64,000 bases of DNA, from the IMG/VR virus record IMGVR_UViG_3300025015_000009, positions 64,001 to 128,000 of that record. One strand, written 5' to 3'. Both the position numbers and the translations under genes were made by a program. The stretch comes from a virus (taxonomy: Duplodnaviria > Heunggongvirae > Uroviricota > Caudoviricetes). Below, piece by piece: positions 10,942 through 60,251 of this stretch; the first letter of the stretch is position 1, and each line of letters opens with the position of its first letter. The notes beneath the pieces are model-generated. The model was not told the DNA's origin, did not search any database, and saw nothing but the letters and a program-made list of their open reading frames with translations.

Positions 10942-11596
10942 TTAACACCCCTTTAACCCAATTGGTATCCTCTACATGTGAAGACAGCCGTTTATTCCAG
11001 TAACTGGGATCAATTATCGTGTATACAATCTTCAGTTGATCTTGATTTAACTTCTCAAGAAATTCAATGCCGGTGGAGCAGTTGTATAGTACCCAGGGAC
11101 TAATTCTACCGTTATTGATTAATCGGCAGATTGCATTTGCATTTCCGAACATAAAGAAGTGATTAAAGCTGCTGTTGTTTACTGCCGACCAGGCTTCCAT
11201 TTCTTTCAATGCACGTTCTAATGCATCCTGCGGGTTTTCTGTACGAAGGTACTGTAACAAATATTCGTCATAGTACGAATCTTTTGTCCATAGATCCAGT
11301 TTTTTATTACTGGATATTATCCAACTTATAAATGACGCCGGATTAACTGCTTGGATAGCAACAATGTACTGCCCGAACTTAACGAACGCAGAATAGTACG
11401 GACTCTCAACGAAATCTGCATATGTCTTACCTTTGCTGGATCCTTGTGTCATGTCGAAGAACTTTAAGAACGCATGTAATCCAAACCTAACCCCAGTTTC
11501 GTTTTCCTGCTGCCAACGCCGTTTGGGTTCGCATAGATGTGTTGCCAGTGTCTTCTCTGCGCGGAACTGCTTACTACAGTATTTACAAGTAACCAT
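10925..11596 (-). CDS. Conserved phage protein with N-terminal zinc finger
   Basis: CKYC...HLC; TAAATA motif near start. Confidence 0.75.
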   Translation of the reverse strand: MVTCKYCSKQFRAEKTLATHLCEPKRRWQQENETGVRFGLHAFLKFFDMTQGSSKGKTYADFVESPYYSAFVKFGQYIVAIQAVNPASFISWIISSNKKLDLWTKDSYYDEYLLQYLRTENPQDALERALKEMEAWSAVNNSSFNHFFMFGNANAICRLINNGRISPWVLYNCSTGIEFLEKLNQDQLKIVYTIIDPSYWNKRLSSHVEDTNWVKGVLNAAGL

Positions 11597-30047: not shown

Positions 30048-31190
30048 ATGCCTGGAATTAAAAAAAGTTGGGATTTTACCTCTGACGTTGCTCCGGGCAA
30101 GCTATTGAAGATAGATGCTGAGAATATACCAGACGACTTCTCACTGTATGCAAAGAAGTTGCTACCTTCTGAAGCAGAACAGGCGGCCGCGGTTGCACTA
30201 GCAAACAAGATAAAGAAGTACCAAACCGAACTTGCTAAACTAAAGAAACAACTTGCTGTTACTAACAAAAAACCTGCAATCAATACAACCACGCTGAAAC
30301 TATTCTCATACATCGACAAGCACTGTTCGAGTGTGGTTGCTACTGTTCGATCAACAAAAAAGGTACTGTATAGAGGTATGGATCAGGACGCCCCGTATTT
30401 TATCGGGCACCCGAGAAAAAATAGACACCCAAAAGATTCGTCTACTAGTAGTCAGAAGCAACTGGACAAGCTATTGTCCTCGCTTGGTTTTACTGCATTG
30501 CGTCAAAATAGTTTATTCGTAACATCAAATCCGAACTTTGCAGCACAATATGGTGACATATATGTTATCTTCCCTAAGGATCCATTTACCTTTACTTGGA
30601 GCTCTGAGTATGACGATGTAGTAATAGACGAACTAGACCTATTAGGTATCGACAATTTTGCCCTATTAGTAAACATAGAAGGTGCGTTCGCCGGCTATCG
30701 CAATGCTCTAAACACGTTTCTTTCAACAAATAAGTTGTCCCCACCATTGTCATCTGCACTTAGTAGAGCGTTACGCCAAGCCGACATTATTGCCGATAAG
30801 ATTGATCATTCACTACCGCACTTCTCTGGAAAAGCAATACAAAATAAGTACATCGACGATTACTTAAAATTCTGTGCATATCTTAATAAGGCAGTCCCTC
30901 AACTAGCGCAATCCAGCACACTAGTTCCTATTTCTAAAGAGATCTCAGCTATACTGCATCGAAAGAAAGAAACAACACAGTCAGCGTCTGCGTATTTAAA
31001 AGGCACGCCTGCGTCAGTTCTAGCAAGAAACCTCGTAACCAAGCATGGATTTAAGAACACAAACCTCGAAGCTGCAATAAAATCTGGACACGAGATATAC
31101 ATACATGGCGAGTATATCGCATTGCGTTTAAGTGAATTCGGTAGCGCAATTACTAAGTATTACCTTAAACCAATTGTAAAGAAGGCATAA
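30048..31190 (+). CDS. ADP-ribosyltransferase-like protein, paralog 4
   Basis: LYRG, RHPKDS, RQNSLFVTS, AAQYG, IFP...FTWS, GHEIY; N-terminus resembles 25912..27117. Confidence 0.65.
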   Translation: MPGIKKSWDFTSDVAPGKLLKIDAENIPDDFSLYAKKLLPSEAEQAAAVALANKIKKYQTELAKLKKQLAVTNKKPAINTTTLKLFSYIDKHCSSVVATVRSTKKVLYRGMDQDAPYFIGHPRKNRHPKDSSTSSQKQLDKLLSSLGFTALRQNSLFVTSNPNFAAQYGDIYVIFPKDPFTFTWSSEYDDVVIDELDLLGIDNFALLVNIEGAFAGYRNALNTFLSTNKLSPPLSSALSRALRQADIIADKIDHSLPHFSGKAIQNKYIDDYLKFCAYLNKAVPQLAQSSTLVPISKEISAILHRKKETTQSASAYLKGTPASVLARNLVTKHGFKNTNLEAAIKSGHEIYIHGEYIALRLSEFGSAITKYYLKPIVKKA

Positions 31191-31903
31191 TGTTTATATC
31201 TGAACTTTTTACCCCGACCTTAGCCGAAGGGCTGCACGACACAAACATATTCAAAGCCGTCTTTGTAGTTGGGCCTCCTGGGGCTGGTAAAGACACTGTT
31301 ATTTCGGCGCTTGACCTAACTAACCAACTCAAGAGCATCGACATCGACGACGTGATCTATCGGTTGAAGAACATACAGCAACAGAAACATCGAACCGAAC
31401 TAACACCAGGCTACAACCAACAAACATACGACATCGTTAACAAGCGGCAATCACTGTGGGTACAAAACTACCTAGGGTTACTTCTTAACCAGACTGGTCG
31501 GAACTACGAGCTGATCGCTGATACAAATAGAATGCTATTAGACGCTGGGTATTCGACGTATATGATCTTTATTAACACTGAAGAAGAAATGGCATTTACT
31601 CGAGTTAACGATCGAGTTAACACCGATTTGCTGCCAGGTCAGAAGAATAAAGACATAGGAAGAACAGTAGATGAACCGTATTTTGACAAAACATATAAAG
31701 CGGTACAACAAAACCGAGTTATGTTCAGCTTACTGTTCGGAAAGAACTTTGCATATATAGATAACAGCGAGGAACTATCTCCTGCTGATCTTCGAGCCGA
31801 AGTTGCTCAGGTAAGGCGAAAAGTTGCTGCGTTCTTAGCGGCACCACTTAGCGGCAAAGCACTAAGCATCACAAGTCGAATTGCACCGAAACGAACTACT
31901 TGA
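31190..31903 (+). CDS. P-loop kinase (zeta-toxin/AAA_33-like)
   Basis: LAE-GLHDTNIFKAVFVVGPPGAGKD; A..RV..R lid. Confidence 0.6.
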   Translation: MFISELFTPTLAEGLHDTNIFKAVFVVGPPGAGKDTVISALDLTNQLKSIDIDDVIYRLKNIQQQKHRTELTPGYNQQTYDIVNKRQSLWVQNYLGLLLNQTGRNYELIADTNRMLLDAGYSTYMIFINTEEEMAFTRVNDRVNTDLLPGQKNKDIGRTVDEPYFDKTYKAVQQNRVMFSLLFGKNFAYIDNSEELSPADLRAEVAQVRRKVAAFLAAPLSGKALSITSRIAPKRTT

Positions 31904-32213: not shown

Positions 32214-33470
32214 TTATGCGAGCTCAGCCAACGTATTCGCTGTTGTCTTGTCAAACCTAACCACGGCGAGTCTCGGCAAAAACAACGACGCCTTATCTTT
32301 CCCTTTGGATGTTATTTTTTGATTATACGTTACCTCAACCACTGAGCCAATAAGCGATTGATTAATCCACATTTCTTTACGCTGCTCGTCACTTAAGCCG
32401 GTACCAACATTTACCCGTAATAGTGAGTCGGATGTTTCACATACCAACGCACCGACCATACCAACATACTTACCGGTGCCTTCAACTATGTCGACAACAA
32501 CAAGATCAGCAGTGTTGATCTCTTTCAGCTTACACAGATCTTTGCTGCGTTTAGGAACCCACAGGTGGTTCATGTTCTTAATAATAGCGCCTTCTTGGCC
32601 TTGTGACAATTGCTCTGCGAAGAACTGCATAGCCTCGTTTTCGTCAGCAACAACAACCGATGTTACTGCTGAGATCCTGTCGTTTATTTTATTACCGAGT
32701 CGTGATAACAATGTGCTGAACCGCACAGTATAAGGAATGGTGCCTGTGAAATCTACTATGTCCCATACTACCGCAACAATCATGTCTGCTTCAGCTTGAG
32801 TAATGGTGCCTTTGTTTGCCTTATTAAGAATACCGTTGCCGATCTCCCTGGGCGCAATCTTACCGTTTTGAACTACGAGCAATTCGCCGTCCCAGCAATC
32901 ACCTTTTGCCATAATTGGTGCAGCCGTCTTATCAAGTGACCCACGCAACTGAAATTCTTTTCCAGATCGGCTCATCGCCTTAACTGTTGTCCCATCAAAA
33001 TACAGATGCACACGCGCTCCATCACATTTAGTTTGGGCATATGCTGGGTATTTAATACGACTCATATCCTTGTCGCACAACATAACATCAAACGTTGGCA
33101 CAAGCCCTGGCCACACACGGGAGGCCAATGTATCACTTGTACCACAACGTAGATCGCGCAAGATGATTCGTTCAACTACAACTGGCTCGGTACAATACGT
33201 TAGCACGTTTCTGAGCAACGCAACCGCATCATTTCCTGTTACTTCACGGCGTTGAAGCTTTTCTATAAAAGTCAGAGCCCAAGGAAGATCGCTTGTTGGT
33301 TCATTGTCGTACTCTGGTATTGCTTTGATCCCATAGGTAATCATCGGATTATATGCCGCTTGAAATACTTGCTTCAACAGCATATTATCTTTCTCACGTT
33401 TCAGAATTGCTTCTTTTCCAAGTGTAGAAGAAGTAGCAGCAAGTTCATCTAAAATTTGAAGAATTGTCAT
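32214..33470 (-). CDS. ATP-dependent DNA ligase (T4 gp30-like)
   Basis: QTKCDGAR, DGEL, WD, EGAIIK, KLKE, VGTG; start MTILQ. Confidence 0.93.
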   Translation of the reverse strand: MTILQILDELAATSSTLGKEAILKREKDNMLLKQVFQAAYNPMITYGIKAIPEYDNEPTSDLPWALTFIEKLQRREVTGNDAVALLRNVLTYCTEPVVVERIILRDLRCGTSDTLASRVWPGLVPTFDVMLCDKDMSRIKYPAYAQTKCDGARVHLYFDGTTVKAMSRSGKEFQLRGSLDKTAAPIMAKGDCWDGELLVVQNGKIAPREIGNGILNKANKGTITQAEADMIVAVVWDIVDFTGTIPYTVRFSTLLSRLGNKINDRISAVTSVVVADENEAMQFFAEQLSQGQEGAIIKNMNHLWVPKRSKDLCKLKEINTADLVVVDIVEGTGKYVGMVGALVCETSDSLLRVNVGTGLSDEQRKEMWINQSLIGSVVEVTYNQKITSKGKDKASLFLPRLAVVRFDKTTANTLAELA

Positions 33471-33476
33471 CTTTGA

Positions 33477-33533
33477 CTCCGTTTCGTTATTCAATGTAAA
33501 CATTATACACTCTTTAACCAAAAAGTCAACCGA
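33477..33533 (-). promoter_or_regulatory. Early promoter cassette, copy D
   Basis: Near-identical to copy A, similarity extends about 45 nt further upstream. Confidence 0.85.
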
Positions 33534-33571: not shown

Positions 33572-34111
33572 TTAGTTGGGTGTGCTGGACAATATCGACA
33601 TTAACGCTTGATAGGTTCCGTTAATCCACCACTCTTTTGTTCCATCTGCGTATATAACAGCGGGGCCATCTTCTTTGTGCAACTGGCCGTTGCTGTACCA
33701 GGCCGTACTTCCATCTGCCCTGCTAACAGCTGGGCCATCTTCTCTGTACCGTTCGCCGTTGACCCACCACTCTTTGGATCCATCTGTGTATTCAACAGCT
33801 GGGCCATCTTCTCTATGCCGTTCGCCGTTGATGTACCACTCCTTGCCTCCATCTGCGTATATAACAGCGGGGCCGTCTGCTCGATGCCGGCGACCGTTAG
33901 TCCACCACGTGGTGGTTCCATCTGCGTACTCAACAGCGGGACCATCTTCTCTGTGGCGTTTGCCATTAATCCACCACTGCTTCGTTCCATTTGCTTGTTC
34001 AACAGCGGGGCCATCTTCTCTGTGGCGCTCACCGTTGACTTGCCATTCTCTGCCCCCACTTGTGTCGGTGGTCATTATTGGCGATGTTAGAAACTGATTA
34101 GAATTAGTCAA
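33572..34111 (-). CDS. HREDGPAV repeat protein 3
   Basis: Tandem 22-aa repeats; TTG start. Confidence 0.8.
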   Translation of the reverse strand: MTNSNQFLTSPIMTTDTSGGREWQVNGERHREDGPAVEQANGTKQWWINGKRHREDGPAVEYADGTTTWWTNGRRHRADGPAVIYADGGKEWYINGERHREDGPAVEYTDGSKEWWVNGERYREDGPAVSRADGSTAWYSNGQLHKEDGPAVIYADGTKEWWINGTYQALMSILSSTPN

Positions 34112-34154
34112 CGTAGACCTGTACTTTCCATTGACATAATGTTAACTCACAGTG

Positions 34155-34204
34155 CTATTCAATGTAAATATTATACACTCTTTAACCAAAAAGTCAACCG
34201 AAAA
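34155..34204 (-). promoter_or_regulatory. Early promoter cassette, copy E
   Basis: Same TTGACT/TATAAT core. Confidence 0.85.
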
Positions 34205-34312
34205 TAAGATATAGTTAAATCACTGACTTAGTATACTATTCCGTACAATATACACCAAACCTCAAGTGACAGTCGGTACAAACCGTATACTAAGAGAAGA
34301 GTAAGTAATGTG

Positions 34313-34465
34313 TTACGAGTTATTTCCTGAGTTGGGGTCATTATAGATAAGTTGTTCATTAGATGGGGCCATAAGTTGTTCGAATTGGTCGTCAGTGATA
34401 GGAACATCACTGTTAACCGGAAAGAGAATTTCGTCCCAAGTGTATTGTCGCAATAGTGTTGTCAT
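34313..34465 (-). CDS. Small hypothetical protein (50 aa) coupled to flgK
   Basis: ATGA overlap with the flgK stop; MTTLLRQYTWDEILFP... Confidence 0.5.
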   Translation of the reverse strand: MTTLLRQYTWDEILFPVNSDVPITDDQFEQLMAPSNEQLIYNDPNSGNNS

Positions 34466-35484
34466 ACAATCGCAATCAGTGTATCAAAATTCTCTTTCTC
34501 GATTTGTATCACCTTAGACATCGCATCGTATAACTGCGTTGCACGTTGAATTTTCATTGTTTCGTCAACTACATTAACGCCGAACATCTGCTGATACGAA
34601 TCAAGTAATCGCTGCTTTGCTTCGGTGTCTGACAGTGTTTGAGTATCAATTTGATGTGAGACAATACCTAACTGTTGTAATATATCACCCATTGCTGTTG
34701 CTAACGTATCACCTGTTATCGAAGATGTTACTATCTGCGCACCCGTTAGTTGGTTGCTGTCATAATGCACTACCCCCGTTGATGTTCTGGTAATAGGCGA
34801 ACTACCAAACTCTGTGTTAATTTTAGCGATAGCTTTATCTAGTACAGCGTCAAACTTACCCTCTAGGTCAGGAATCACCCTGGTTATGAGATCCCCTTGA
34901 CCTCGCATCTTACCTTCAAGAGTAGAGAGTTCTTCTTGAACTGATGAGCGAACAGTATCATCAGTTATCAGTGACAACTGCACTTGGAGTTGCACAAGGC
35001 GGTCGGCATCGATGTTTTGCTGTTTCTGGATATTTGCTTTGACATCGGCGACAGACGAAGACCACGTATTGATATCAGCGGCCAACTGCTTACCGTAATG
35101 ATCTACATTTGCTTTGTTGCCAGCTGGATTACCTTTTTGTCGGAAGTCGTACACTGCACCTACAAACGAATCCCATGTATCTGCAATGTTAGAGTTTCTA
35201 GCAGAGAATTCTAAATCTTTTAAAGTTCGTTGTACCGTTTCGTCACTCACAACCAACTTAATAGACTCGTTCTTAGCTCGTTCCATGTTCGAGTCAAACC
35301 GACGTACCGCCGCAGCATCGACTCCTGCACGAATAGCACGTTCAGTATAGACAACGTCTGATCGAACAAACCCATTAGTATCTGCATTTGCTATATTGTG
35401 AGATGCAACTTTTATTTGCGCTTGAGCGGCTGCTAGGCCCGAAGAACCTATTCCGAACATTTGAGCATTTGATATTATAGCCAT
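34462..35484 (-). CDS. flgK: Flagellar hook-associated protein FlgK-like (shortened)
   Basis: SGLAAAQAQIKVASHNIANADTNGFVR N-terminus; GVNVVDET...YDAMSKVIQ...FDTLI C-terminus. Confidence 0.85.
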   Translation of the reverse strand: MAIISNAQMFGIGSSGLAAAQAQIKVASHNIANADTNGFVRSDVVYTERAIRAGVDAAAVRRFDSNMERAKNESIKLVVSDETVQRTLKDLEFSARNSNIADTWDSFVGAVYDFRQKGNPAGNKANVDHYGKQLAADINTWSSSVADVKANIQKQQNIDADRLVQLQVQLSLITDDTVRSSVQEELSTLEGKMRGQGDLITRVIPDLEGKFDAVLDKAIAKINTEFGSSPITRTSTGVVHYDSNQLTGAQIVTSSITGDTLATAMGDILQQLGIVSHQIDTQTLSDTEAKQRLLDSYQQMFGVNVVDETMKIQRATQLYDAMSKVIQIEKENFDTLIAIV

Positions 35485-35491
35485 TTGCTAT

Positions 35492-35518
35492 AAGGAGAGG
35501 ATTGTTAGCCCTCTCCTT
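35492..35518 (-). promoter_or_regulatory. 9-bp hairpin between fliC and flgK
   Basis: AAGGAGAGG / CCTCTCCTT perfect stem sequestering the only SD-like sequence before flgK. Confidence 0.55.
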
Positions 35519-35527
35519 CCTATTATG

Positions 35528-36343
35528 TTAACGTAGCAAACCTAACAAAGTTTGTGGCATCGAGTTTGTTATTGCTAAACTCTGCACCATTAACTGTTGT
35601 TTAACTTGCAACTGTGCTAATTGGGCAGACAACGCCGGGATATCAGCATCTTCGATCGAAGATATCGAACTCTGAAGATTCAGTTTATTTGCTGCGGCTG
35701 ACTCTGCTGTCTTCTCGATACCAGTGATCTGTGTTCCGATAATTGCTTGGTTAGACGCAACTGTTGCTACTGCTGCGTCAAGAGCTGTCATCGCTGCGGC
35801 AGAGGTTGTTGGATCTGTGAGTACTTCCGCTGTCAGGGCCAACGTTGCAGCATCGCTCTTAACCGCGGTAATAGTCTTAGTATTACCAGAGTTAATTCCA
35901 GACTGGATAGTTACGTTCGCTGCGGCAGTTCCTGTTAAGTTTTGGCCGAACAAGTTTGCAGTATTAACAGCATTGTCTAGCTGAGTTTTTAGTTCAGTGA
36001 ATTGCGAAACAATAGCTGCGCGTTGATCCGCACTTAACAGCGCGCTGGATGCCTGTGTTGCAAGATCCTTCATCTGAAGCAGAGTACTTTGCTGACTATT
36101 CAGAGACGTTTCTGCTGTCTTCAGCAACGATTTGCCAGCAGATAGGTTCTTTGCTACCGCGTTATATGACGACTCTTGCGCTTTTAGCGTTGACAGAATA
36201 CCAACGCCTGCTGGATCGTCTGCGGCAGTTAGAATACGCTTGCCACTGGATATTTGCTGTGATACTTTTGAAATGTCTTCTGTGTTACGGTTTAGTTGCA
36301 ATGCACCAAACAACGATGAAATATTTGTATTAAGTGATAACAT
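35528..36343 (-). CDS. fliC: Flagellin (minimal, D0/D1 only)
   Basis: LNTNISSL...ISSGKRILTAADDPAG N-terminus; SIEDADI...ITNSMPQTLLGLLR C-terminus. Confidence 0.92.
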   Translation of the reverse strand: MLSLNTNISSLFGALQLNRNTEDISKVSQQISSGKRILTAADDPAGVGILSTLKAQESSYNAVAKNLSAGKSLLKTAETSLNSQQSTLLQMKDLATQASSALLSADQRAAIVSQFTELKTQLDNAVNTANLFGQNLTGTAAANVTIQSGINSGNTKTITAVKSDAATLALTAEVLTDPTTSAAAMTALDAAVATVASNQAIIGTQITGIEKTAESAAANKLNLQSSISSIEDADIPALSAQLAQLQVKQQLMVQSLAITNSMPQTLLGLLR

Positions 36344-36428
36344 TTTGATTCTCCTTAGGATTAATTCTAACGCTTATTACAGCGTCCTGTTTAAAGGAGC
36401 AACAACAGGGTTTGCTTACTTCTACTAG

Positions 36429-36436
36429 TATTTATC
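36429..36436 (-). promoter_or_regulatory. T4-like late promoter upstream of flagellin
   Basis: GATAAATA about 85 nt before the fliC ATG. Confidence 0.55.
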
Positions 36437-36464
36437 ACATCCAATGCAGCATTATGTGATAGTA

Positions 36465-36797
36465 TTATTCAGTTACTAACAACTTTAAGAAACCGATCTC
36501 ATCTTTAAATACGTACACAGTAAATCGATTAATCGATGCTTCTTTTGCTTTTGTTAAGATCTTAATGAACCCTGAAAACAGCAAGTTCTGCTCGTTTTCA
36601 GGTAAGTTTATGTTTAAATCAACAGTCAGATACTCCAGAATAGTAACAGCACTGTCTAGACCTGAGTACCTCTTAACCTTACTGTTGCTGGTGTCTTGGT
36701 ATTCTGTCAGGTACAATATAAGAGAACGCAAGATCTTGTTGTTAACCTGGGCAGGTGTTCCGGTGTCGGCAGCAACATTCTTGTATAATTGTATCAT
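36465..36797 (-). CDS. fliS: FliS-like flagellin chaperone
   Basis: LYKNVAADTGTPAQV matches the FliS Y...T.SP.QL pattern; helical, 110 aa; directly upstream of fliC. Confidence 0.55.
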   Translation of the reverse strand: MIQLYKNVAADTGTPAQVNNKILRSLILYLTEYQDTSNSKVKRYSGLDSAVTILEYLTVDLNINLPENEQNLLFSGFIKILTKAKEASINRFTVYVFKDEIGFLKLLVTE

Positions 36798-36856
36798 AAT
36801 ATCCTCTACTTAGTATAAACATTAACACAATTGTCTGACTAGCACAACCTGGTATA

Positions 36857-37036
36857 TTACCGTTTCCAGCGTTTACCAGATCGAGAACAAAAATAATGTG
36901 CTCGCGGAGTGACATTAGACGTCGTTACTGTCCAAGTTGACGTAGCCCTCGCGGTCGGGTACACGTTCGAGTAACACGCGCCCGAGTATGCATTAACGGT
37001 GTTATTACGAAACCATCCGAGAAATGAAAACCCCAT
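36857..37036 (-). CDS. Small hypothetical protein (59 aa)
   Basis: Manual; AGGAG RBS. Confidence 0.45.
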   Translation of the reverse strand: MGFSFLGWFRNNTVNAYSGACYSNVYPTARATSTWTVTTSNVTPRAHYFCSRSGKRWKR

Positions 37037-37045
37037 ACTAATCTC

Positions 37046-37963
37046 CTATGTCCAAAGATTCTTACGAACATTGATAAGCCGAGTCAAACACTCAGTGTCT
37101 TCTTTGTCGTACCTTGCTTCTATCGAATGCATCTTTTTAAGCAACTTACGCAATAGTGCTCGCGTTTCTTTGTTTTCGTTTGTTGATGAGATCCACAAGA
37201 CATCCTCGTCATCCTCATCAGGATTGTCGGCTTTTCTCTTAGCTTTCTGAGCGGCATAATATGCATCTAGTCCACTTGCTTCATGCGGATCAGGTCTAGC
37301 TGGTCGAGTAACAGTCCACCAGTTATACAGATACAACACCTCTGCTGCTGTTTTAGCTTGATCTGTTGGTTGGTTGTACCGTTTGTTTGCAAGTCGTTCT
37401 GCTGCGACCTTCTCTGGTTCGGTTTTCTCTCGCCAGTTGTACCCGAACCATTCGTCGTCTTGCTTCAGTGTTGCTTCCCAAGTCAAGTACTCTATTCCTA
37501 GTCTGGGCTCATTAAATCGGCACATATACCTATATGGCCACTTCCGCTTCCAGAAAGGCAACACACCGTCGTATTTCTTGCTGTGACAAACATATTCCAT
37601 CCAGGCTTTTTCGTCCTCGACAAATCGCCGTAGCGTGTCAAACACTCCGTGAAGCAGCCTTGTATCAAAATCTGCCCACTCCCCAGGGGGTAACCCTGTG
37701 GTCATAACATGCGTTTTTTCTATGAAACGGTTATTAAAGTAGTACGACAAGCTATATAGTTTATCGTACGGGTAATACACAAAATTCTGAATCGAATCAA
37801 TTAAATCATCAGTGACCCAATAGAACAGAGGGCTCGCCTCTTTTGCAGCTTTACGATAATCTCGCCATTCTTCTGATGTTCCTGAGGCAAGCATCGCAGG
37901 AATTCCTGCAAACTTCCGTATGCGATCAGCTGTCTTGCTTAGACTCCAATATGTTTTTCTCAT
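37046..37963 (-). CDS. Conserved phage hypothetical protein
   Basis: 305-aa ORF. Confidence 0.75.
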   Translation of the reverse strand: MRKTYWSLSKTADRIRKFAGIPAMLASGTSEEWRDYRKAAKEASPLFYWVTDDLIDSIQNFVYYPYDKLYSLSYYFNNRFIEKTHVMTTGLPPGEWADFDTRLLHGVFDTLRRFVEDEKAWMEYVCHSKKYDGVLPFWKRKWPYRYMCRFNEPRLGIEYLTWEATLKQDDEWFGYNWREKTEPEKVAAERLANKRYNQPTDQAKTAAEVLYLYNWWTVTRPARPDPHEASGLDAYYAAQKAKRKADNPDEDDEDVLWISSTNENKETRALLRKLLKKMHSIEARYDKEDTECLTRLINVRKNLWT

Positions 37964-40306: not shown

Positions 40307-40696
40307 CTACAGAATATCTCCTACGCACGCCACTACATCTGTAGTAGCAGCGGTTGCAACAGCGCAAGCCCCATCTGTGTATGTCGGAACTATGTAATCA
40401 GTTCCATTGATAGAAATCGTTATTCCGGTAGCAACAGCAACGCCAGCAGGTGTAACACCAGCAGCAAGTTGAACAACAGTCGGATTAACTGGCGTAGATC
40501 CAGCAACAGCTCTTTGCGCTACTAATACAGAATGTGTTGATTTCAATGCACCGCTAACACCTTTCTTGGCAGCTATTCGTGCATCGTTACTAAGATCCAC
40601 AAACTTCGGTAATGCAGTTGCGGACAAAATTCCCAATATCACAATTACCATAACCAACTCGATTAAGGTAAAACCAGCCTGTTGTTTCGTTTTCAT
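40307..40696 (-). CDS. Type IV pilin (MshA/PilA-like)
   Basis: Class III signal KQQAG/FTLIELVMVIVILGILSATALPKF; C-terminal Cys pair. Confidence 0.9.
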   Translation of the reverse strand: MKTKQQAGFTLIELVMVIVILGILSATALPKFVDLSNDARIAAKKGVSGALKSTHSVLVAQRAVAGSTPVNPTVVQLAAGVTPAGVAVATGITISINGTDYIVPTYTDGACAVATAATTDVVACVGDIL

Positions 40697-40735
40697 TGTT
40701 GTTCTCCTTAGCACAAGACTGATGTTAGTGACCTT

Positions 40736-41146
40736 TTATTTGCACCAACCTGCTCTGCGGCCACCAGTGTACGAGCGAACATGACCTGCTGCAATCATCT
40801 CACTCGCAATGTCTTTTCCATTGACAATCACCGTAGCATTAACTCTGCCACCATACTTGTCCCATTTGAAGTTAGTCAGCGTTAGTGTCTTGGCATCGCC
40901 AATAAGAGTTTTCATAAACTCTTTCGCTTTCTTCGCTTGCTCTATCTCGCTTGCACACTTCCCTTTTATTTCCGGTGCATCAATTCCGTTGATCCGAACC
41001 GACGCATTGTTTAATGGAATCGGCAACTGAGGTAACGATATCATAATCGAGTCACCGTCATATACGTACCTCATTGGGACATCAAACGACTCTGCATTAA
41101 CCGGCAGTGATACAAACAATAACAGTGCAATCGCGAGTTTCTTCAT
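40736..41146 (-). CDS. Thermonuclease (SNase) family protein with signal peptide
   Basis: VYDGDS, VRINGIDAPE, DKYGGR. Confidence 0.88.
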   Translation of the reverse strand: MKKLAIALLLFVSLPVNAESFDVPMRYVYDGDSIMISLPQLPIPLNNASVRINGIDAPEIKGKCASEIEQAKKAKEFMKTLIGDAKTLTLTNFKWDKYGGRVNATVIVNGKDIASEMIAAGHVRSYTGGRRAGWCK

Positions 41147-41153
41147 AGTGTCC

Positions 41154-41747
41154 TTAGTTTAGTTGATCTCCGAACTTCCGTTCCATCAGAACCTTCATCC
41201 TAGAGTGTTCGGGTACAAAGTTTAGCAAGAACTTTGCTTGGTCGATAAGAATGTTTCTATTCTGCATAATCAGGTGCTCGTCCTTCGTTGGGGTGTACGG
41301 CACCCAGAGCAACTCTAAGTCAGTATCAGACAACAAATTATCATCTTTGTAATTATTGCACTTCTTGCACGCCGAAATACAATTCGTCCAAGTATCTTTT
41401 CCTCCGCGGGATACCGGAATAATGTGGTCCCGTGTCAATACTGTTGATTTTGACTCTAACCGACCACAGTAACCGCAGATGTGCAAGTCGCGTTTAAACA
41501 AGTTTTGGTTTGTCAACGCAGGAATACGAGGCTGAAACTTAAAGTTCCCTTTAAGTGCAATAATAGACTTAACCTCAATGGTCGATCGTTCTCCGGTCAT
41601 TCTTGACACTCCGCCGAAGTACAACGACTCATCACCGAATTCGTATGAAATTAGACCTTTAAACTTTGCCGTGATCGCATCCTGCCAATGCATCCATTGG
41701 TGTGGTGTTCCGCTCGAAGTTAACGCTAATACGTCTTGATGTGACAT
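41154..41747 (-). CDS. HNH endonuclease
   Basis: CGYCG...TRDHIIP...GG..TWTNCISACKKCN. Confidence 0.88.
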   Translation of the reverse strand: MSHQDVLALTSSGTPHQWMHWQDAITAKFKGLISYEFGDESLYFGGVSRMTGERSTIEVKSIIALKGNFKFQPRIPALTNQNLFKRDLHICGYCGRLESKSTVLTRDHIIPVSRGGKDTWTNCISACKKCNNYKDDNLLSDTDLELLWVPYTPTKDEHLIMQNRNILIDQAKFLLNFVPEHSRMKVLMERKFGDQLN

Positions 41748-54588: not shown

Positions 54589-54681
54589 TGGTACTCCTGC
54601 TGGGTAACGCTCCCAGGACTTGCCCTCATCTAGAGCCTTGGCAGTTTATAAATCTGCTTGTTTTCTTTAAACTACAGGAGC
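54589..54681 (-). tRNA. Atypical tRNA-like gene, anticodon UAU (Ile), long variable arm, non-canonical T-loop
   Basis: GCTCCTG/CAGGAGT acceptor, ACCA end, GCAG/CTGC anticodon stem. Confidence 0.55.
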
Positions 54682-54686
54682 ATATT

Positions 54687-54757
54687 TGGAGCCGCATAGT
54701 GGATTCGAACCACTCACTTCCAGCTTCGAAGGCTAGAGTCTGTCCATCAGATGCGAC
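54687..54757 (-). tRNA. tRNA-Arg(UCG)
   Basis: CTAGC-CTTCGAA-GCTGG; GTTCGAATCC; CCA. Confidence 0.75.
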
Positions 54758-54765
54758 TTTGTTCG

Positions 54766-55437
54766 TTAATTCCACAACAGATCAAAGTTACCAGCCATCA
54801 CCTTCTTAACAGACGAGGTCTTATTAGTAATATGATCTTTAACCACGTCATCTTGAAACCGATACGTGCGTATCTTGTCTCCACGCATCCCTGTTCCGAC
54901 CTGAGCCTTCCTAATTGCTGCTGACTTCGCTGCACAACTGCTCGCAACCACGTTCTTTACCTGAGCTACTAGTTGATCATACGCCAGTTTATAGCTGTTA
55001 GTTCGACTTCTTGTTTGTGCAGTCTGTACAATTCCTGTTGGTATATGTGTTAATCTACACGACGACTTTATTTTATTTCTGTTTTGTCCGCCGCAACCAG
55101 TTCCGCTGTACCACTCTACTTTTAAATCTAATTCACTGACCTCGTGCAACTGGACTGTCGGATCAATCAACGCCACTGTTACCGTCGAGGTATGAACTCG
55201 GCCTTTTCTCTCTGTTGGCGGGACACGCTGTATCCGATGGCCCCCAGGTTCGTTGTTAAGTTTATCTAAATCACGTCCTTCAACTGCAATACAAATCTCG
55301 CCTGATCTTGCAGAAACCAAGCGGGTAGTTCAACCAACTCGTGTGAAGAACTTCTGATACGCTTGCGCCAAATCAGTAACAAACAATGCTGCATCTTCGC
55401 CGCCTTCAGCAGCCCGAATTTCTAATACACGTTTCAT
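54766..55437 (-). CDS. RF1-like peptide chain release factor lacking domain 1, in-frame UGA at codon 36
   Basis: LEIRAAEGGEDAALF...RVG*TTRL...GGHRIQRVPPTE (PxT)...GGQ...KIRTYRF. Confidence 0.85.
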
Positions 55438-55453
55438 GTTCAACTCCTTTAAC

Positions 55454-55585
55454 TTACCCTTGCTTACTAACCTTGCTAACCGGCTGTGGGTACTTTACAC
55501 CACAGCGCGGGCAAGCATTATTTACCGGAATCATTGAGTACCTACAGCTCTCGCAGAATCTAAAGATGCTGGGCGCAGTTGTCAC
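55454..55585 (-). CDS. Small zinc-ribbon protein
   Basis: GTG start overlapping upstream TGA; CESC...CPRC. Confidence 0.45.
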   Translation of the reverse strand: MTTAPSIFRFCESCRYSMIPVNNACPRCGVKYPQPVSKVSKQG

Positions 55586-55746
55586 CCCAGCAACAAGTAC
55601 CCGAACAACAGTATAAGCAAAATCGACACTGTCGTTGATATATCTGAGAACGTATCCGAGGTGCAGTGTGCTTTCTGCTGAGTGCTGTTTGTTTCAACAG
55701 GACCGTCGGTAACCAAATCATCTCTCCTTAGCTTCCTCATTGCCAT
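55582..55746 (-). CDS. Small membrane protein
   Basis: Manual translation, C-terminal TM. Confidence 0.45.
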   Translation of the reverse strand: MAMRKLRRDDLVTDGPVETNSTQQKAHCTSDTFSDISTTVSILLILLFGYLLLG

Positions 55747-55747
55747 A

Positions 55748-56068
55748 TTACTTCGCCAATCCCAATATAAAGTCGATCATAGTAGCAGCATCAGTCTGGC
55801 TTAGCTTTGGGTTCGCTGGCATCGGCATGGTTCCCCATACTCCACCACCACCGTTTACCACTTTAAGCGACAGTTTCTCTTTTGCGGCAGGATCACCCTT
55901 ATACTTAGCAGCAATACTAGAGAACGCAGGGCCAACAACTTTCTTATCAACTGCGTGACATGCAGTGCAAGTATATTTCTTTAACATGTCCGGAACTTCA
56001 GTTGACGCTGCTGCTTGTGTTGCCAACGTGCTCATTACCAACATACCAGTTACGATTATCTTATTCAT
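55748..56068 (-). CDS. Class I cytochrome c (c551/c552-like)
   Basis: Signal peptide, CTACH heme motif, VGPAF, GVWG..PMP Met ligand. Confidence 0.92.
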   Translation of the reverse strand: MNKIIVTGMLVMSTLATQAAASTEVPDMLKKYTCTACHAVDKKVVGPAFSSIAAKYKGDPAAKEKLSLKVVNGGGGVWGTMPMPANPKLSQTDAATMIDFILGLAK

Positions 56069-56116
56069 TTTAACTTCTCCTTGTGTGTACATCAGTTTCG
56101 ATGTTGATGTTAATGT

Positions 56117-56144
56117 ATTATACAGTCACGCACTACGTTGTCAA
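56117..56144 (-). promoter_or_regulatory. sigma70 promoter of the cytochrome c / release factor operon
   Basis: TTGACA-N16-TATAAT. Confidence 0.8.
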
Positions 56145-56151
56145 TCAAAAC

Positions 56152-56297
56152 GGAATTCCTATCCTTAGGCAGGAAACATATCAAGTATATGTTAGACCCT
56201 TCAGTTACTCTGTTGCCAGTTGGCATACCACTGAATCCGATATGCCCTCTCAAGTTAGTAGTTGCTGAAGGAATTCCACTCGCCTTAACTGTATTTA
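56152..56297 (-). ncRNA. Candidate structured ncRNA with its own late promoter
   Basis: GATAAATA then closed GGAATTCCT/AGGAATTCC stem with internal hairpins. Confidence 0.5.
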
Positions 56298-56300
56298 TCG

Positions 56301-56708
56301 TCAGTCATATGTCCACCCCAACGATTTCATCATTTTTTGCTTCACTCTTGTGTTTGGTAGGCGGAATACCAGTGGATCAGTAAACCCCATCATAACTCCG
56401 ACTTCAACGACTGCTCCCGAGCGACACATACCGGCAGTGCAATGAACAACAATATCCATTTGCTGTTCGATTGCTTTGCGCAACAGAGCAACCAATTGTT
56501 CGGCTTGCTCGTCTGTTACTCCGAACTCGTCTACATATTCGTCGTTGTCTTCAATATCAAGAAACTCGAATATATGCGTTTCCTTAAAAGCATGTGGTGA
56601 CTGAGGTGGCAATCCTGCTGGGTCAACTATCTGGATTGCAAGCATGTTATCACTAGTCGGATGATTTCCCTTTTTAAAGTCTATCGCTGAGGCGTTGTAT
56701 ATAAACAT
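56301..56708 (-). CDS. Protein-tyrosine/dual-specificity phosphatase-like protein
   Basis: VHCTAGMCRS CX5R motif; upstream F.D..D. Confidence 0.85.
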   Translation of the reverse strand: MFIYNASAIDFKKGNHPTSDNMLAIQIVDPAGLPPQSPHAFKETHIFEFLDIEDNDEYVDEFGVTDEQAEQLVALLRKAIEQQMDIVVHCTAGMCRSGAVVEVGVMMGFTDPLVFRLPNTRVKQKMMKSLGWTYD

Positions 56709-56727
56709 GAATGTTCCGTAATTTAGT

Positions 56728-56800
56728 GCCGGGTGTTGGGTAATAAGGAACCCGGCGTATCCTCATCGGTTGCTACTTATTAGGCAGCTAACGCATAATT
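56728..56800 (-). pseudogene. Displaced tmRNA coding-piece 3' end (NYALAA tag end plus pseudoknot)
   Basis: AAT TAT GCG TTA GCT GCC TAA TAA, then CCGATGAGG pseudoknot. Confidence 0.7.
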
Positions 56801-56837
56801 TTAACATAATTTGATAAATAAGTAAAGAGGAATTAAT

Positions 56838-57500
56838 ATGTTTTTACCTTATGTATACAAAGTAACTCATAAATTAAATAACAAATTTTATATTGGAATG
56901 CGGTCAGCAAACAAAGTTGTTGCTGAGCTCGATTTAGGAATAAAGTACTTTACTTCATCTAAATATGTTAAGAATAACTTTGATGAGTTCAACATTGAAA
57001 TATTAGCATACTTTCAAGACTGGTCATCTGCTTTTGAATTCGAGAATACATTAATTAAAGACCATTGGAAAAATCCATTATTAATCAATCGACATTACCA
57101 GTTAACTATATCAAAGTTCTCAATGAGTGGTGTGAAGCGTCCAGATCTAGCGGAACGAAACAAAAAAAGAAGAAAGCCAAAAGAAGAAAGAGACTACCAG
57201 TGTAGTCGATGCAATATTCGTTTTATTAGATTAGAATTTTGCCATCATTTAATAAAAAAAATTGCATTCTGTTCACAAGCATGTGCGGCAGCCTACAATG
57301 GTTTAGTGGGAGGAGCAAAACAAAAAGGTATTTCAAACCTTAAACTACTAGGCAGGCCAGCGTGGAATAAAGGCCTGCCTAACCCAAACTCAGTTGAAAA
57401 TGCCAAAAAAGGAGCAGCAAGATTGTCACTAATAGCAACCGGAAGGAAAAGAAAGTACTTGGCCGACGGGAAATGGACCTGGGACTACCCAAAACAATAG
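56838..57500 (+). CDS. Free-standing GIY-YIG homing endonuclease
   Basis: YVYKVTHKLNNKFYIGMRS...YFTSS; WNKG; GATAAATA promoter. Confidence 0.85.
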   Translation: MFLPYVYKVTHKLNNKFYIGMRSANKVVAELDLGIKYFTSSKYVKNNFDEFNIEILAYFQDWSSAFEFENTLIKDHWKNPLLINRHYQLTISKFSMSGVKRPDLAERNKKRRKPKEERDYQCSRCNIRFIRLEFCHHLIKKIAFCSQACAAAYNGLVGGAKQKGISNLKLLGRPAWNKGLPNPNSVENAKKGAARLSLIATGRKRKYLADGKWTWDYPKQ

Positions 57501-57520
57501 GCCCATATTATGGGCCTATT
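57496..57520. terminator. Perfect hairpin between the convergent endonuclease and tmRNA
   Basis: AATAGGCCCATA/TATGGGCCTATT. Confidence 0.6.
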
Positions 57521-57885
57521 GTAATCATTTTTGATTATAAGGGATGATTGCCCCTCATCGGTGGTTGTATTTTACGCAACCAATTCATAGCTGTCAGCAT
57601 TGGCTGCAACTTTACCGCCGAAGCGGAAGTCTTTACCAACTTTAACTGCTACAGTTCCGAATGTATTTGCTTTGTTTGCATTTACGATTTTGCTTGATTT
57701 ACAGTCATCGCCTACTGTGTTGCCTCTATTCTATCTCACTCAATCGAACCCTGGTCTGCCCCATCAGGAACACATTACCCAACTTATCTAGAACGCTGTT
57801 TGTGCAGTAGCAATGTGTTTTTGGTGGAGCAGGGCGGAATCGAACCGCCGTCTTGAACGCCTTACCTTAAAGGAATTACAACAAT
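57520..57885 (-). ncRNA. ssrA: Circularly permuted (two-piece) tmRNA
   Basis: Acceptor piece ...GACGGCGGTTCGATTCCGCCCTGCTCCACCA (ends 57822) precedes GGGGCAGA...GGTTCGAT (starts 57762); tag frame 57679-57572. Confidence 0.88.
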
Positions 57886-57918
57886 TCTGTGTACGCAAAC
57901 CCTGCGTATCTTATCTAG

Positions 57919-57992
57919 TGGGTCGTGAAGGACTCGAACCTTCGACCAAAGGATTATGAGTCCTCTGCTCTAACCAACTGAGCTAACGACCC
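57919..57992 (-). tRNA. tRNA-Ile2(CAU)
   Basis: ileX-like body, CTCATAA loop, no encoded CCA. Confidence 0.85.
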
Positions 57993-58113
57993 TTATTCGT
58001 AATATATAATATTAGGTTGCCAATAAGAACCGTTGGCAACAAAAGGCATCGGATAGCAATTGCCCATATTTCGTACAACCAATTCGGCCAACCATGCATA
58101 CTTGCATCCTTTG

Positions 58114-58302
58114 TTAACTTACCACTGCCTCATTTACTTTCTCGAATTCTTCCCTGCACATCTCTTCTAACCGGTCAAGTAAGTCAGTTGACCCGTTTTC
58201 CGCTTCGACTTGAACTACATACGGCAAACGACGGTACCACGTATCTCGAAACAGGTCATACGTATTCATTAATTGATCCCCTATTAGCTGTCTAGAACAC
58301 AA
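58114..58302 (-). CDS. Hypothetical protein
   Basis: ORF track. Confidence 0.45.
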   Translation of the reverse strand: MCSRQLIGDQLMNTYDLFRDTWYRRLPYVVQVEAENGSTDLLDRLEEMCREEFEKVNEAVVS

Positions 58303-58499
58303 CTGTCTACCATCATACCAAGAATCTTTTTAATCGACTCTTTTGACATACATTCATTACTACAACAAAGTTTACCATCTGTATTAGTATAAAAGTAGAA
58401 CTGACCAAACCCTGTTCCTGTTACAGTCCAGCTCAGAGTAAACGAGTTATGTAGTTGAACACCGTCGTCGTAACGGTCAAACACGTCTTGCATTGACAT
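58284..58499 (-). CDS. Hypothetical protein
   Basis: ORF track. Confidence 0.55.
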   Translation of the reverse strand: MSMQDVFDRYDDGVQLHNSFTLSWTVTGTGFGQFYFYTNTDGKLCCSNECMSKESIKKILGMMVDSCVLDS

Positions 58500-58517
58500 A
58501 CTCGCCCTTATGTTGTA

Positions 58518-58712
58518 TCACCAACTATCGTAATCTGTTAAGTTCAATTCTGTGTTTGTTATCAAACACCGAACAGTGAGTGCAGTACCAAGTGAAGTCG
58601 GTGTAAAACAGAACTCAAATTGTGTACCCAATGTATCTCTGGATACTGGCTTGGTTTTTGCCCATTCTTTAAACTCAATTTCTTGTTCGTCTGTTAACGT
58701 AAAAGTACGCAT
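58518..58712 (-). CDS. Conserved small phage protein
   Basis: F.F.PTSLG...N.TDYDSW. Confidence 0.7.
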   Translation of the reverse strand: MRTFTLTDEQEIEFKEWAKTKPVSRDTLGTQFEFCFTPTSLGTALTVRCLITNTELNLTDYDSW

Positions 58713-58726
58713 GGTTACTTTCTATA

Positions 58727-58802
58727 TGGTAGTGACAACAGCGCTCGAAGCTGCACATTCATCGTTATGAGCGATGCTCTCTTCCTCTTGAGATATGTCA
58801 CC
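58727..58802 (-). tRNA. tRNA-Met(CAU)
   Basis: CATCG-CTCATAA-CGATG; CCA. Confidence 0.8.
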
Positions 58803-58806
58803 GTGG

Positions 58807-58947
58807 ATACTATCTAAAATGCAGTGTCTTCCTATCGTTACCGAATCACCAGCTATTGTCAGAACCTAACCTTGTTTGCTCTCACATTGACTATGATTAG
58901 TAGCCCTGGTTAATCGCACATTGATATCACTGCACTTGAGGTAGCAT
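58807..58947 (-). ncRNA. Candidate 141-nt ncRNA closed by an 18/20-bp terminal stem
   Basis: ATGCTACCTCAAGTGCAGTG pairs with CACTGCATTTTAGATAGTAT. Confidence 0.45.
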
Positions 58948-58951
58948 AGAG

Positions 58952-59269
58952 TTAGTCACATTTCAAGGAAAGTTGGGATGCAAACGAGACAATTGCCGCA
59001 TCTGGGTCAACAAACTCCTGGTCCAACGCAAGATACATATTGTAAACAACCGTACCGTAGAGAGCTACAATCTCAGACCAGATCAGATTATCTGAACTGA
59101 ACTCTGTCAACTGTATCGTCATCTTAGCTACTACCGTTTCGGCTAACCGTCGGTTCATACCTAAACTCTGAAGTCGATTGGTTAGCGCAATCATACACAA
59201 GAAGTTCGGTACCGTCTTAATGTCGACTGCTGCCATATTACGCATTACTTCCAATAGTTCTCTTTTCAC
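58952..59269 (-). CDS. Hypothetical protein
   Basis: ORF track; GTGA overlap. Confidence 0.6.
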   Translation of the reverse strand: MKRELLEVMRNMAAVDIKTVPNFLCMIALTNRLQSLGMNRRLAETVVAKMTIQLTEFSSDNLIWSEIVALYGTVVYNMYLALDQEFVDPDAAIVSFASQLSLKCD

Positions 59270-59475
59270 TTCTCGTTCCTTTCATCAGCAATAACTTGGT
59301 ATGTAGTTTTACCTTGCTGGTTAGCAATATACTCGATGACAATAGTCTTACATACTCCTCTGGCATGTCCGAATATACTCTGAAGTTTGCTCCCACTGTC
59401 CCTGGTCCCAAACCAACGGAAAAACTCACTCTCAAGCTCGATGTACTCTTGCTCAGTTACCATCTGGTATTTCAT
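59266..59475 (-). CDS. Hypothetical protein
   Basis: ORF behind promoter cassette F. Confidence 0.65.
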   Translation of the reverse strand: MKYQMVTEQEYIELESEFFRWFGTRDSGSKLQSIFGHARGVCKTIVIEYIANQQGKTTYQVIADERNEK

Positions 59476-59492
59476 CTTGTTGTCCTGTTCTG

Positions 59493-59541
59493 CTATTCAA
59501 TGTAAACATTATACACTCTTTTACCGAAAAGTCAACCGAAA
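59493..59541 (-). promoter_or_regulatory. Early promoter cassette, copy F
   Basis: TTGACT-N16-TATAAT with the same leader. Confidence 0.8.
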
Positions 59542-59555
59542 TAACCAGTATTTTG

Positions 59556-59627
59556 TGCCCTGTGCAGGATTCGAACCCACCAGTGTCGGAATAGGAATCC
59601 GATGCTTATCCAATCAGCCTACAGGGC
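59556..59627 (-). tRNA. tRNA-Arg(CCU)
   Basis: TCGGA-TTCCTAT-TCCGA. Confidence 0.8.
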
Positions 59628-59640
59628 AAGACTACTCGTA

Positions 59641-59853
59641 TTAATCGCTGGTTTTAGTACTACGGCGCGCTCGCTGCTGTTCTGCCACAGCAATAGCACA
59701 TTGCGACCGAATATAGTACCTGCGCTCACTCTTTGGCAACGTCGCAGCATACATCTTTGTCATCTTATCACACTTAACACCCTTAGGGAGTCGGGAGCGT
59801 GGTGTTTGCGTATTGTTCTCTTGAAACTCTGCTGTGTTGTTCGTTGCATTCAT
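59641..59853 (-). CDS. Hypothetical protein
   Basis: ORF track. Confidence 0.55.
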   Translation of the reverse strand: MNATNNTAEFQENNTQTPRSRLPKGVKCDKMTKMYAATLPKSERRYYIRSQCAIAVAEQQRARRSTKTSD

Positions 59854-59884
59854 TGTATTGTTCCTTAGTTAGTAAACGGTTGTA

Positions 59885-60130
59885 TTAACAATCTATTTGC
59901 TTCTCAATCAACTTCTCTAGCATTGCTACGTCGAATACATCATTGCGCCCCCAGGTAGGCTGGGTCTGATCTATGTCAGATTGCTGTATGGTTACCAAGT
60001 AACTAGTGTCCTCGATCTCATCTGGTTTGTACTCTTCTTGAACAGTAACTTCTACTATAGAACGTTCAATAGCACTTGGCCAGGCGATATGAGTTGAAGA
60101 TAACATGTTTCTCTCAGTTTTATGTAACAA
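59885..60130 (-). CDS. Hypothetical protein
   Basis: ORF track; promoter at 60135-60165. Confidence 0.5.
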   Translation of the reverse strand: MLHKTERNMLSSTHIAWPSAIERSIVEVTVQEEYKPDEIEDTSYLVTIQQSDIDQTQPTWGRNDVFDVAMLEKLIEKQIDC

Positions 60131-60245: not shown

Positions 60246-60251
60246 AATGTT

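Follow-up and report, generated by a model that had tools for sequence, protein, structure and literature searches.

A chaperone-flagellin gene pair and an FlgK-like gene in a large groundwater phage: a module that may act on the host flagellum

Why should a large phage carry flagellar genes of its own? We address this question for a group of three genes (fliS-like, fliC and flgK-like) in an uncultured groundwater phage, known from a 318,013-bp IMG/VR record (IMGVR_UViG_3300025015_000009; G000 is the genome studied). The window is the whole stretch of DNA that was analysed, bases 64001-128000 of this record (64,000 nucleotides, nt), and all coordinates are window positions. An earlier note on this DNA had described the three genes as co-oriented, and we found all of them on the minus strand where it had placed them. 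Our favoured reading, to which we give a probability of roughly one half, is that the phage makes flagellin late in infection, that its own chaperone brings this flagellin to the flagellar export apparatus of the host, and that the subunits become part of the host filament. The three genes, in the order in which they are read, are the following.

36465..36797, minus strand: putative FliS-type flagellin chaperone, divergent, 110 amino acids (aa), assigned by predicted fold and family profile
35528..36343, minus strand: flagellin (fliC), 271 aa, domains D0/D1 only, assigned by Pfam Flagellin_N and Flagellin_C
34462..35484, minus strand: FlgK-like hook-filament junction protein, 340 aa, shortened, D0/D1 only, assigned by Pfam and predicted fold

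The identity of the flagellin was supported by Pfam scores of 80.1 bits for Flagellin_N (PF00669; cut-off 26.6) and 37.1 bits for Flagellin_C (PF00700; cut-off 23). Its residues 3-271 aligned with residues 5-273 of Caulobacter FljN, FljM, FljL and FljK, which are filament formers of 273 aa; the protein had been called minimal, but by comparison with these it falls into a normal size class. All 43 PDB sequence matches were named flagellin, 'Flagella', FliC or 'Flagellin homolog', and none was FlgL. FlgL was considered as a candidate identity and ruled out by the end-to-end flagellin matches; the full-length flagellin models of NCBIfam gave 116 bits and the FlgL model 99, all below their equivalog cut-offs. 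The short flagellins of Caulobacter (FljK/L/M/N, 273 aa; PDB 6xl0, 8uxn, 9cef) and Shewanella (272 aa; 9lah) share with the phage protein a similar length, the D0/D1-only build and alignment from end to end. In contrast to this common architecture, sequence similarity to them is remote (E about 4e-20), and the phage clade is separate from the cellular flagellins sampled.

The flagellin is one of a large family. We found more than 120 sequence clusters of flagellins of 271-274 aa, with 45-80% identity and all of metagenomic origin. The gene contexts that could be read were phage-like, with many small open reading frames (ORFs) and genes for DHFR, radical SAM proteins, RNA ligase, dCMP deaminase and a split release factor. 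A family member is carried by 15 IMG/VR contigs, and the phage-type contigs of the relatives range from 96 to 328 kb. Members of this deep clade have kept the whole D0/D1 core of polymerisation as well as the LLR at the C-terminus. For the cellular side, the family's own motifs were scanned against one genome from each of 185,579 prokaryotic species. Among the matches listed, the cellular flagellins that came closest had 27-37% identity; most of them were short ones from Sphingomonadales, and some came from Gammaproteobacteria. A maximum-likelihood tree placed 37 family members, along with two metagenome contigs rich in AT, on one side of a branch of length 0.73, and 27 cellular plus four other flagellins on the opposite side; the branch had a support of 100 in the Shimodaira-Hasegawa-like approximate likelihood ratio test (SH-aLRT). 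Judged by these sequence comparisons, the flagellin belongs to a large and old clade confined to phage-type contigs. In the literature collection searched, we found no paper describing this clade. Two related loci on other contigs (such loci carry L-numbers), L127 and L128, lie on very AT-rich metagenome contigs of 40 and 65 kb; their flagellin falls inside the phage clade on a long branch and is 34-35% identical, and no chaperone-family gene was detected near it.

The 110-aa protein had no match in Pfam, PHROG or NCBIfam. When its family was compared with Pfam, weak matches to FliS were seen for two of 67 members and weak matches to FlaF for nine of 67. A word-based search with the chaperone gave one relative, and an exhaustive profile search was used instead: a profile built from seven homologues was run against 1.8 billion proteins and retrieved 71 representative clusters, with lengths that were all near 100-120 aa. 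The family profile found no FliS among PDB sequences (hmmsearch). The AlphaFold 2 (AF2) model of the protein, with a predicted local distance difference test score (pLDDT) of 83, is a helical bundle of four antiparallel helices and an N-terminal cap helix. In a Foldseek search of the PDB with this model, the top nine rows were FliS, with template modelling (TM) scores by query of 0.62-0.76; over the PDB and Swiss-Prot searches together, FliS entries scored 0.62-0.77. The top eight rows of VIA were also FliS, with Z of 12.3-14.5 and root-mean-square deviations from 2.1 to 3.0 over 93-103 residues. Among Swiss-Prot structures FliS took ranks 1-7. FlaF, a second candidate identity, is disfavoured by the rank of its Caulobacter representative (13) in the same search; the weak Pfam FlaF matches remain as a hint.

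Because helical bundles get high structural scores easily, we also compared profiles. Six genuine FliS sequences from cellular genomes were aligned, and hhalign matched the phage family to them remotely, with a probability of 76.7% and an E value of 2.1e-5 over 110 columns. This alignment puts phage Tyr5 on FliS Tyr10. In Salmonella, Tyr10 of FliS inserts, together with Ile7 and Val13, into a hydrophobic cleft of FlhA, and Tyr10 is absolutely conserved (PMC5932034). At the Tyr5 position of the phage family, 59 of the 61 members having the position (67 aligned) carry Tyr and the other two Phe, and Ile2, Tyr5 and Val8 of the window protein have the spacing of Ile7, Tyr10 and Val13 in FliS. The family was absent from 80 cellular flagellin loci. 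On its modelled fold and profile the 110-aa protein is FliS-like, a putative, remote FliS-type chaperone for which FlhA docking and flagellin binding are predicted. It resembles the bacterial system, in which FliS delivers FliC to FlhA (PMC5932034; PDB 6ch3, 5maw, 6gow), in being a four-helix chaperone with an N-terminal recognition helix and a conserved Tyr, and in having its gene next to the flagellin gene. Unlike bacterial FliS, it lacks a match to Pfam FliS (PF02561) and measures 110 aa against about 125-135, and its binding is predicted from sequence.

The third protein, of 340 aa, gave Pfam matches to Flg_bb_rod (PF00460; 31.8 bits) and Flg_bbr_C (PF06429; 24.9 bits), each above its cut-off. 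TIGR02492 (flgK_ends) matched with an E value of 5e-24 and 85.4 bits, below the equivalog cut-off of 170.75. No sequence match to an FlgK in the PDB was obtained. The AF2 model (pLDDT 79) is nearly all helical, and its six best PDB structure matches were FlgK chains of the Salmonella hook-filament junction (9go6, 9u4r), with E values from 6e-9 to 2e-7 and TM by query of 0.57-0.63, followed by Campylobacter FlgK (9gsx) and the FlgK fragment 2d4y. Going by these profiles and the model, the protein is a shortened FlgK. By inspection, this protein and the flagellin both lack the capsid-targeting tag of this genome at their start. It shares with FlgK/HAP1 (9go6, 9u4r, 9gsx, 2d4y) the N- and C-terminal axial motifs and the D0/D1 helical core; it differs in its length (340 against about 550 aa, the outer domains D2/D3 being missing), in the lack of an FlgL or FlgN partner in the phage genome, and in the position of its gene, which is downstream of flagellin and not in a flgKL operon.

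We then asked which of these genes form the constant part of the module. The chaperone gene adjoins the flagellin gene in every viral locus read. The FlgK-like gene stands directly downstream of flagellin in the window and in L199, L004, L008, L104, L107, L109 and L124, probably also in L125 and L126, and is absent from L002, L003, L006, L101, L111, L112, L114 and L120; it is thus present in about half of the related loci. When a complete 328-kb relative with terminal repeats and a 90%-complete relative of 96 kb were searched throughout with a profile of the FlgK-like protein, neither was seen to contain one. Since it is missing from complete relatives, we regard chaperone and flagellin as the core of the module and the FlgK-like protein as an accessory. 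The whole genome holds a single Flagellin_N-type gene and a single rod-motif gene, and neither FliD nor further axial proteins are encoded in the 318-kb record; host parts are therefore needed. A further frame had been taken into the module by the earlier note, whose span began at 34313:

34313..34465, minus strand: 50-aa ORF overlapping the flgK stop, no family match, unconserved

This ORF had no Pfam, PHROG or NCBIfam match and no tblastn homologue in eight related loci. Unconserved as it is in the relatives, it is probably not part of the module.

The arrangement and the setting of the pair vary among the relatives. In L114 (328,096 bp, with terminal repeats) the chaperone gene is downstream of flagellin. 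L113 (96,021 bp, 90% complete) and L114 together show that the flagellin-chaperone pair spans very different genome sizes and is not found in jumbo phages alone. L199, whose flagellin is 79% identical, carries at 10500-11171 a release-factor gene in two pieces, PCRF and then PCRF with RF-1. The release factor is likewise split in the window at 54766-55437, as had already been pointed out.

The record is 91% complete by CheckV, and elsewhere in it there are genes with matches to the families of tail sheath, portal and baseplate wedge. Its portal shares 50% identity with those of the Pseudomonas jumbo phage PA5oct and relatives of that phage; PA5oct itself belongs, as a distant member, to the jumbo group related to T4 (PMC7318152). 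The earlier label 'T4-like' is to be understood as a distant kinship of the PA5oct type. No integrase was found in the 318-kb record. GenBank phages gave no nucleotide match. With tblastn against GenBank, nothing but weak fragments of flagellin turned up, in Listeria and faecal records that are unannotated, and there was no close homologue in a cultured phage. Among the sequencing runs listed as containing this DNA none was of RNA, and the habitat is placed by the groundwater runs. The module is surrounded by non-structural genes (DNA ligase, nucleases) and lies 35 kb from the structural block.

Several neighbours may be listed here. A zeta-toxin/AAA_33-like kinase (31190-31903, plus strand) and an ATP-dependent DNA ligase (32214-33521, minus strand) flank the module region. 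At 33572-34111 (minus strand) a 179-aa protein of MORN-like repeats is encoded, with a weak DUF6745 match; per-run assemblies break in this gene, with several back-joints and a summed contig depth that rises about tenfold, so that the repeat is abundant or variable in the sample. Farther away, 17 tRNA genes and a tmRNA gene, with the tag peptide AANADSYELVA, are clustered at 54589-63651 (minus strand).

To place the module in the infection cycle, we turned to its promoters, for which two candidates were found.

36430..36437, minus strand: GATAAATA, promoter motif of late type, 85 nt upstream of the fliC start codon (ATG), from 8-mer enrichment
37058..37087, minus strand: candidate sigma-70-type promoter TTGACT-18-AAGAAT upstream of the chaperone gene, from a consensus scan (9/12)

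GATAAATA was the most enriched upstream 8-mer, present in 23 upstream regions against 34 occurrences genome-wide. The late-promoter motif of the phage, NATAAATA, mostly has G as its first base and is usually separated from the start codon by about 20 nt; genes for tail sheath, portal, baseplate wedge and other virion proteins have it upstream. The fliC copy reads from 36437 to 36430, and its distance from the ATG is the longest of 56 cases; the motif is also found upstream of fliC in L002 (at 87 nt) and in L004 (at 65 nt). The claim that a late-type motif precedes fliC is thus borne out by a top-enriched 8-mer that is shared with virion genes. The T4 late promoter is TATAAATA, a word that itself showed no genome-wide enrichment here. 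The likeness is one of motif and position: a -10 element of 8 nt that has no -35 element with it and stands upstream of virion genes, typically about 20 nt before the ATG. The difference lies in the first base, here mostly G. On this likeness NATAAATA behaves as a T4-style late promoter.

The candidate chaperone promoter matches the consensus at nine of 12 positions, and words containing TTGACT are enriched upstream of genes genome-wide, which weakly suggests a sigma-70-type promoter for this gene. A second family of upstream words, overlapping 8-mers that tile to approximately TTTCGGTTGACTTTTTGGTTAAA, is strongly enriched before genes in the whole genome; it probably represents promoters of the early or middle class whose -35 region is extended.

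Several RNA structures are predicted for the transcripts, the first two in the fliC leader and the others at the junction of fliC and flgK.

36344..36424, minus strand: structured fliC leader, with CUCCUU (36394-36399) complementary to the Shine-Dalgarno (SD) sequence AAGGAG (36351-36356), from the minimum free energy (MFE) fold
36369-36386, minus strand: leader hairpin with hexaloop GUAAUA, from the MFE fold and covariation
35493..35517, minus strand: 9-bp hairpin, loop CUAACAA, about 10 nt past the fliC stop, from folding
35476..35492, minus strand: another, smaller hairpin, whose loop holds the flgK AUG, from MFE and centroid folds

In the MFE fold of the leader, CUCCUU upstream of the hairpin pairs with the SD sequence; the fold of the whole leader was no better than that of shuffles (z -0.96). 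The leader hairpin, with a closing U-A pair and hexaloop GUAAYA, was found to recur in ten distinct loci with different stems. Its four inner pairs were paired in 100% of the sequences, with 13 double-sided changes, and its covariation was 0.64 against 0.20 when shuffled (0/500 as high) and at most 0.19 with partners slid; the hairpins were picked out visually, starting from the loop motif, a procedure biased towards paired cases. The SD-complementary segments vary by locus (in L004, for example, GGUUCUC with GAGAACC). RNAalifold gave a second covarying hairpin in one subclade. A covariance model of the two-hairpin leader of this subclade recovered near copies of the training loci and, weakly (E 0.3) and at the right place, the window; it had no match in cellular flagellin loci and missed L101, L126 and L199. 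Because of these missed loci, only the GUAAYA hairpin is taken to be common to the leaders.

The earlier note had also described a 9-bp hairpin that buries an SD-like sequence before flgK. This hairpin is real: it has nine pairs, the loop CUAACAA and -18.9 kcal/mol for the stretch (z -3.6), and its 5' arm holds the SD-like AAGGAG; the close relative L199 has a GGAG in the 3' arm. Hairpins at the same distance, with other stems and with loops CUAAUAA or CCAAUAA, occur in L004, L104 and L107, and most other loci have terminator-like hairpins after fliC. Rfam gave no match within 34000-37200, and the GUAAYA and CYAAYAA hairpins showed no genome-wide repeat. The proposal attached to this hairpin, of much flagellin and little FlgK, is plausible as an inference from the sequence; flgK translation would be low and possibly coupled to that of fliC.

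These elements can be combined as follows. The chaperone gene would probably be read from the sigma-70-type promoter, and flagellin would be transcribed late from the NATAAATA promoter, on an mRNA whose 85-nt structured leader may mask the ribosome-binding site. The strong hairpin after fliC would end or stabilise most transcripts. It could also occlude the ribosome-binding site of flgK, allowing little FlgK-like protein to be made, possibly just at times when the stem is opened by a ribosome that completes fliC. The chaperone would grip the C-terminus of flagellin and dock on host FlhA through its N-terminal tyrosine; the phage flagellin would then be exported by the host flagellar type III system and polymerise on the host hook or filament. 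In this way the infected cell could keep or change its filament as host gene expression fails.

The analysis itself shows what the genes are, that the clade is confined to phages, how the genes are arranged in the relatives, the class of the promoter and the hairpins in the RNA; export, incorporation into the host filament, the ratio of the proteins and the benefit to the phage are all inferred. Export through the host type III system is the most economical reading because the phage has no export gate, hook or cap and because its chaperone keeps a residue with one known role, that of FlhA docking. As to the benefit, the infected cell could be kept motile after host expression fails, or a receptor could be altered to keep progeny or competing flagellotropic phages from adhering. 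A type IV prepilin gene (N_methyl motif; PHROG 'pilin') lies 4 kb away, the last of a tight three-gene operon (40307-41747, minus strand) behind GATAAATA; its partners encode an HNH endonuclease and a signal-peptide SNase-like nuclease. This pilin is a second host-appendage subunit, probably expressed late, that could be assembled only by host machinery, and the operon fits a habit of supplying subunits of host surface filaments.

Several points weigh against incorporation into the host filament. The late timing is typical of virion components, and a lytic cell has little time to gain from a new filament. With cellular flagellins the clade shares 37% identity at most among the matches listed, so that its compatibility with the host filament, FlgL and cap is a presumption. 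A phage FlgK would have no obvious use if the flagellin merely extended existing filaments. Finally, the FliS assignment rests on a predicted fold, of a kind that scores highly with ease, and on the 76.7% profile match.

Among the other explanations, one that we consider unlikely is that the complex serves as a jammer of the export gate or as a regulatory decoy. By occupying FlhA or titrating regulators of flagellin synthesis, it would stop or reprogramme host assembly and yield no functional filament; the gain could be a saving of energy, for instance, or the loss of a receptor that competing flagellotropic phages use. The conserved FlhA-docking tyrosine would serve such a role equally, as would the massive late expression expected from the promoter and the 3' hairpin. 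However, a blocking protein would not account for a D0/D1 polymerisation core and LLR end conserved across a deep clade, and an FlgK-like junction protein suits assembly, not blocking.

It is improbable that the flagellin is exported through the flagellar system and released unassembled, as a soluble or matrix protein. Homologues of flagellin that do not form filaments have been described, namely Campylobacter FlaC and the Vibrio FHPs (PMC4863622, PMC6692518), and the chaperone and export features expected would be identical to those of incorporation into the host filament. Against such a fate stand the end-to-end likeness to filament-forming flagellins of 273 aa and the presence of an FlgK-like partner.

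An equally improbable course is that the flagellin polymerises in the cytoplasm as a head or tail fibre which catches hosts or flagella, with the FlgK-like protein nucleating or anchoring it and the chaperone only stopping premature polymerisation. The late-type promoter is indeed common to tail sheath, portal and baseplate genes, a junction-type adaptor adjoins the filament subunit, the clade is old, viral and far from cellular flagellins, and subunits with D0/D1 only are enough for filaments. Yet the FlgK-like protein is missing in complete relatives, which leaves the core without a nucleator; the chaperone keeps an FlhA-docking tyrosine that cytoplasmic assembly does not need; and the module sits among non-structural genes at a distance from the structural block. 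The specific version, in which the flagellin is a virion part whose filament, nucleated by the FlgK-like adaptor or by an unknown phage protein, is assembled onto the particle as a host-catching fibre, seems to us a shade more doubtful still. If true, this would be the first case of a flagellin polymerising without the help of a type III secretion system. Remodelling of the host flagellum and a virion filament were the two functions that the earlier note had offered; with a core of flagellin and a docking-tyrosine chaperone and a dispensable FlgK-like protein, the evidence leans towards the host flagellum, and the virion filament comes out weaker.

The remaining explanation is an assembly chimera or captured host DNA without a phage role. 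The record is a metagenome assembly, and in Logan contigs from three groundwater runs the sole contig break, in the repeat-rich gene at 33572-34111, falls just left of the module. However, one 8,840-nt contig per run (3/3 runs) spans 34174 to beyond 39500 at a depth equal to that of the flanking contig, G+C content is uniform along the window including the module, and there is no close copy in cellular genomes among the matches listed. The flagellin-chaperone pair also recurs in more than 20 phage contigs from other samples, which is the stronger argument because the three runs may be the source of the assembly. With spanning contigs at flank depth, even G+C content, recurrence and a phage clade, we take these to be phage genes and consider a chimeric host insert very nearly incredible.

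Building into the host filament, the reading that we favour, has its nearest described counterpart in FRphi of Enterobacter, a temperate, TldR-carrying phage whose flagellin FliC_P was shown to be assembled by host machinery into the host filament (PMC13418256; bioRxiv 10.1101/2023.11.30.569447). The likeness is that of a phage flagellin, here expected to enter the host filament. In contrast to FRphi, the present phage is a large PA5oct-type myovirus with no integrase found in its record, and no TnpB/TldR-type gene was seen in the Pfam matches of the module's neighbours. It has its own chaperone, a late promoter and a flagellin of an old phage-only clade, often with an FlgK-like protein, and its expression appears to be late-lytic rather than lysogenic. 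In Nitrosospira phages (of freshwater and soil proteobacteria), FlaA, FlaG, FliJ and FliI have been listed as morons, as annotations only (bioRxiv 10.64898/2026.05.02.722434), and the likeness to our module, flagellins in phage genomes, is by annotation alone.

The module also supplies parts: a minimal chaperone-flagellin pair far from the cellular ones, a minimal FlgK of 340 aa and a new hairpin motif. To our knowledge, phage flagellins have so far been known from temperate enterobacterial phages, in which an RNA-guided repressor swaps the host flagellin. What is new here is a deep phage-only flagellin lineage that comes with its own chaperone and a late promoter, with a leader RNA that has been conserved and, optionally, with a junction protein. 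In the cells that they infect, lytic phages of aquatic habitats thus probably change or maintain the flagellum. The logic would be comparable to that of cyanophage psbA or, alternatively, to receptor masking, and these findings suggest that viruses of fresh water and groundwater have long and widely acted on the host's organelle of motility in the course of lytic infection.

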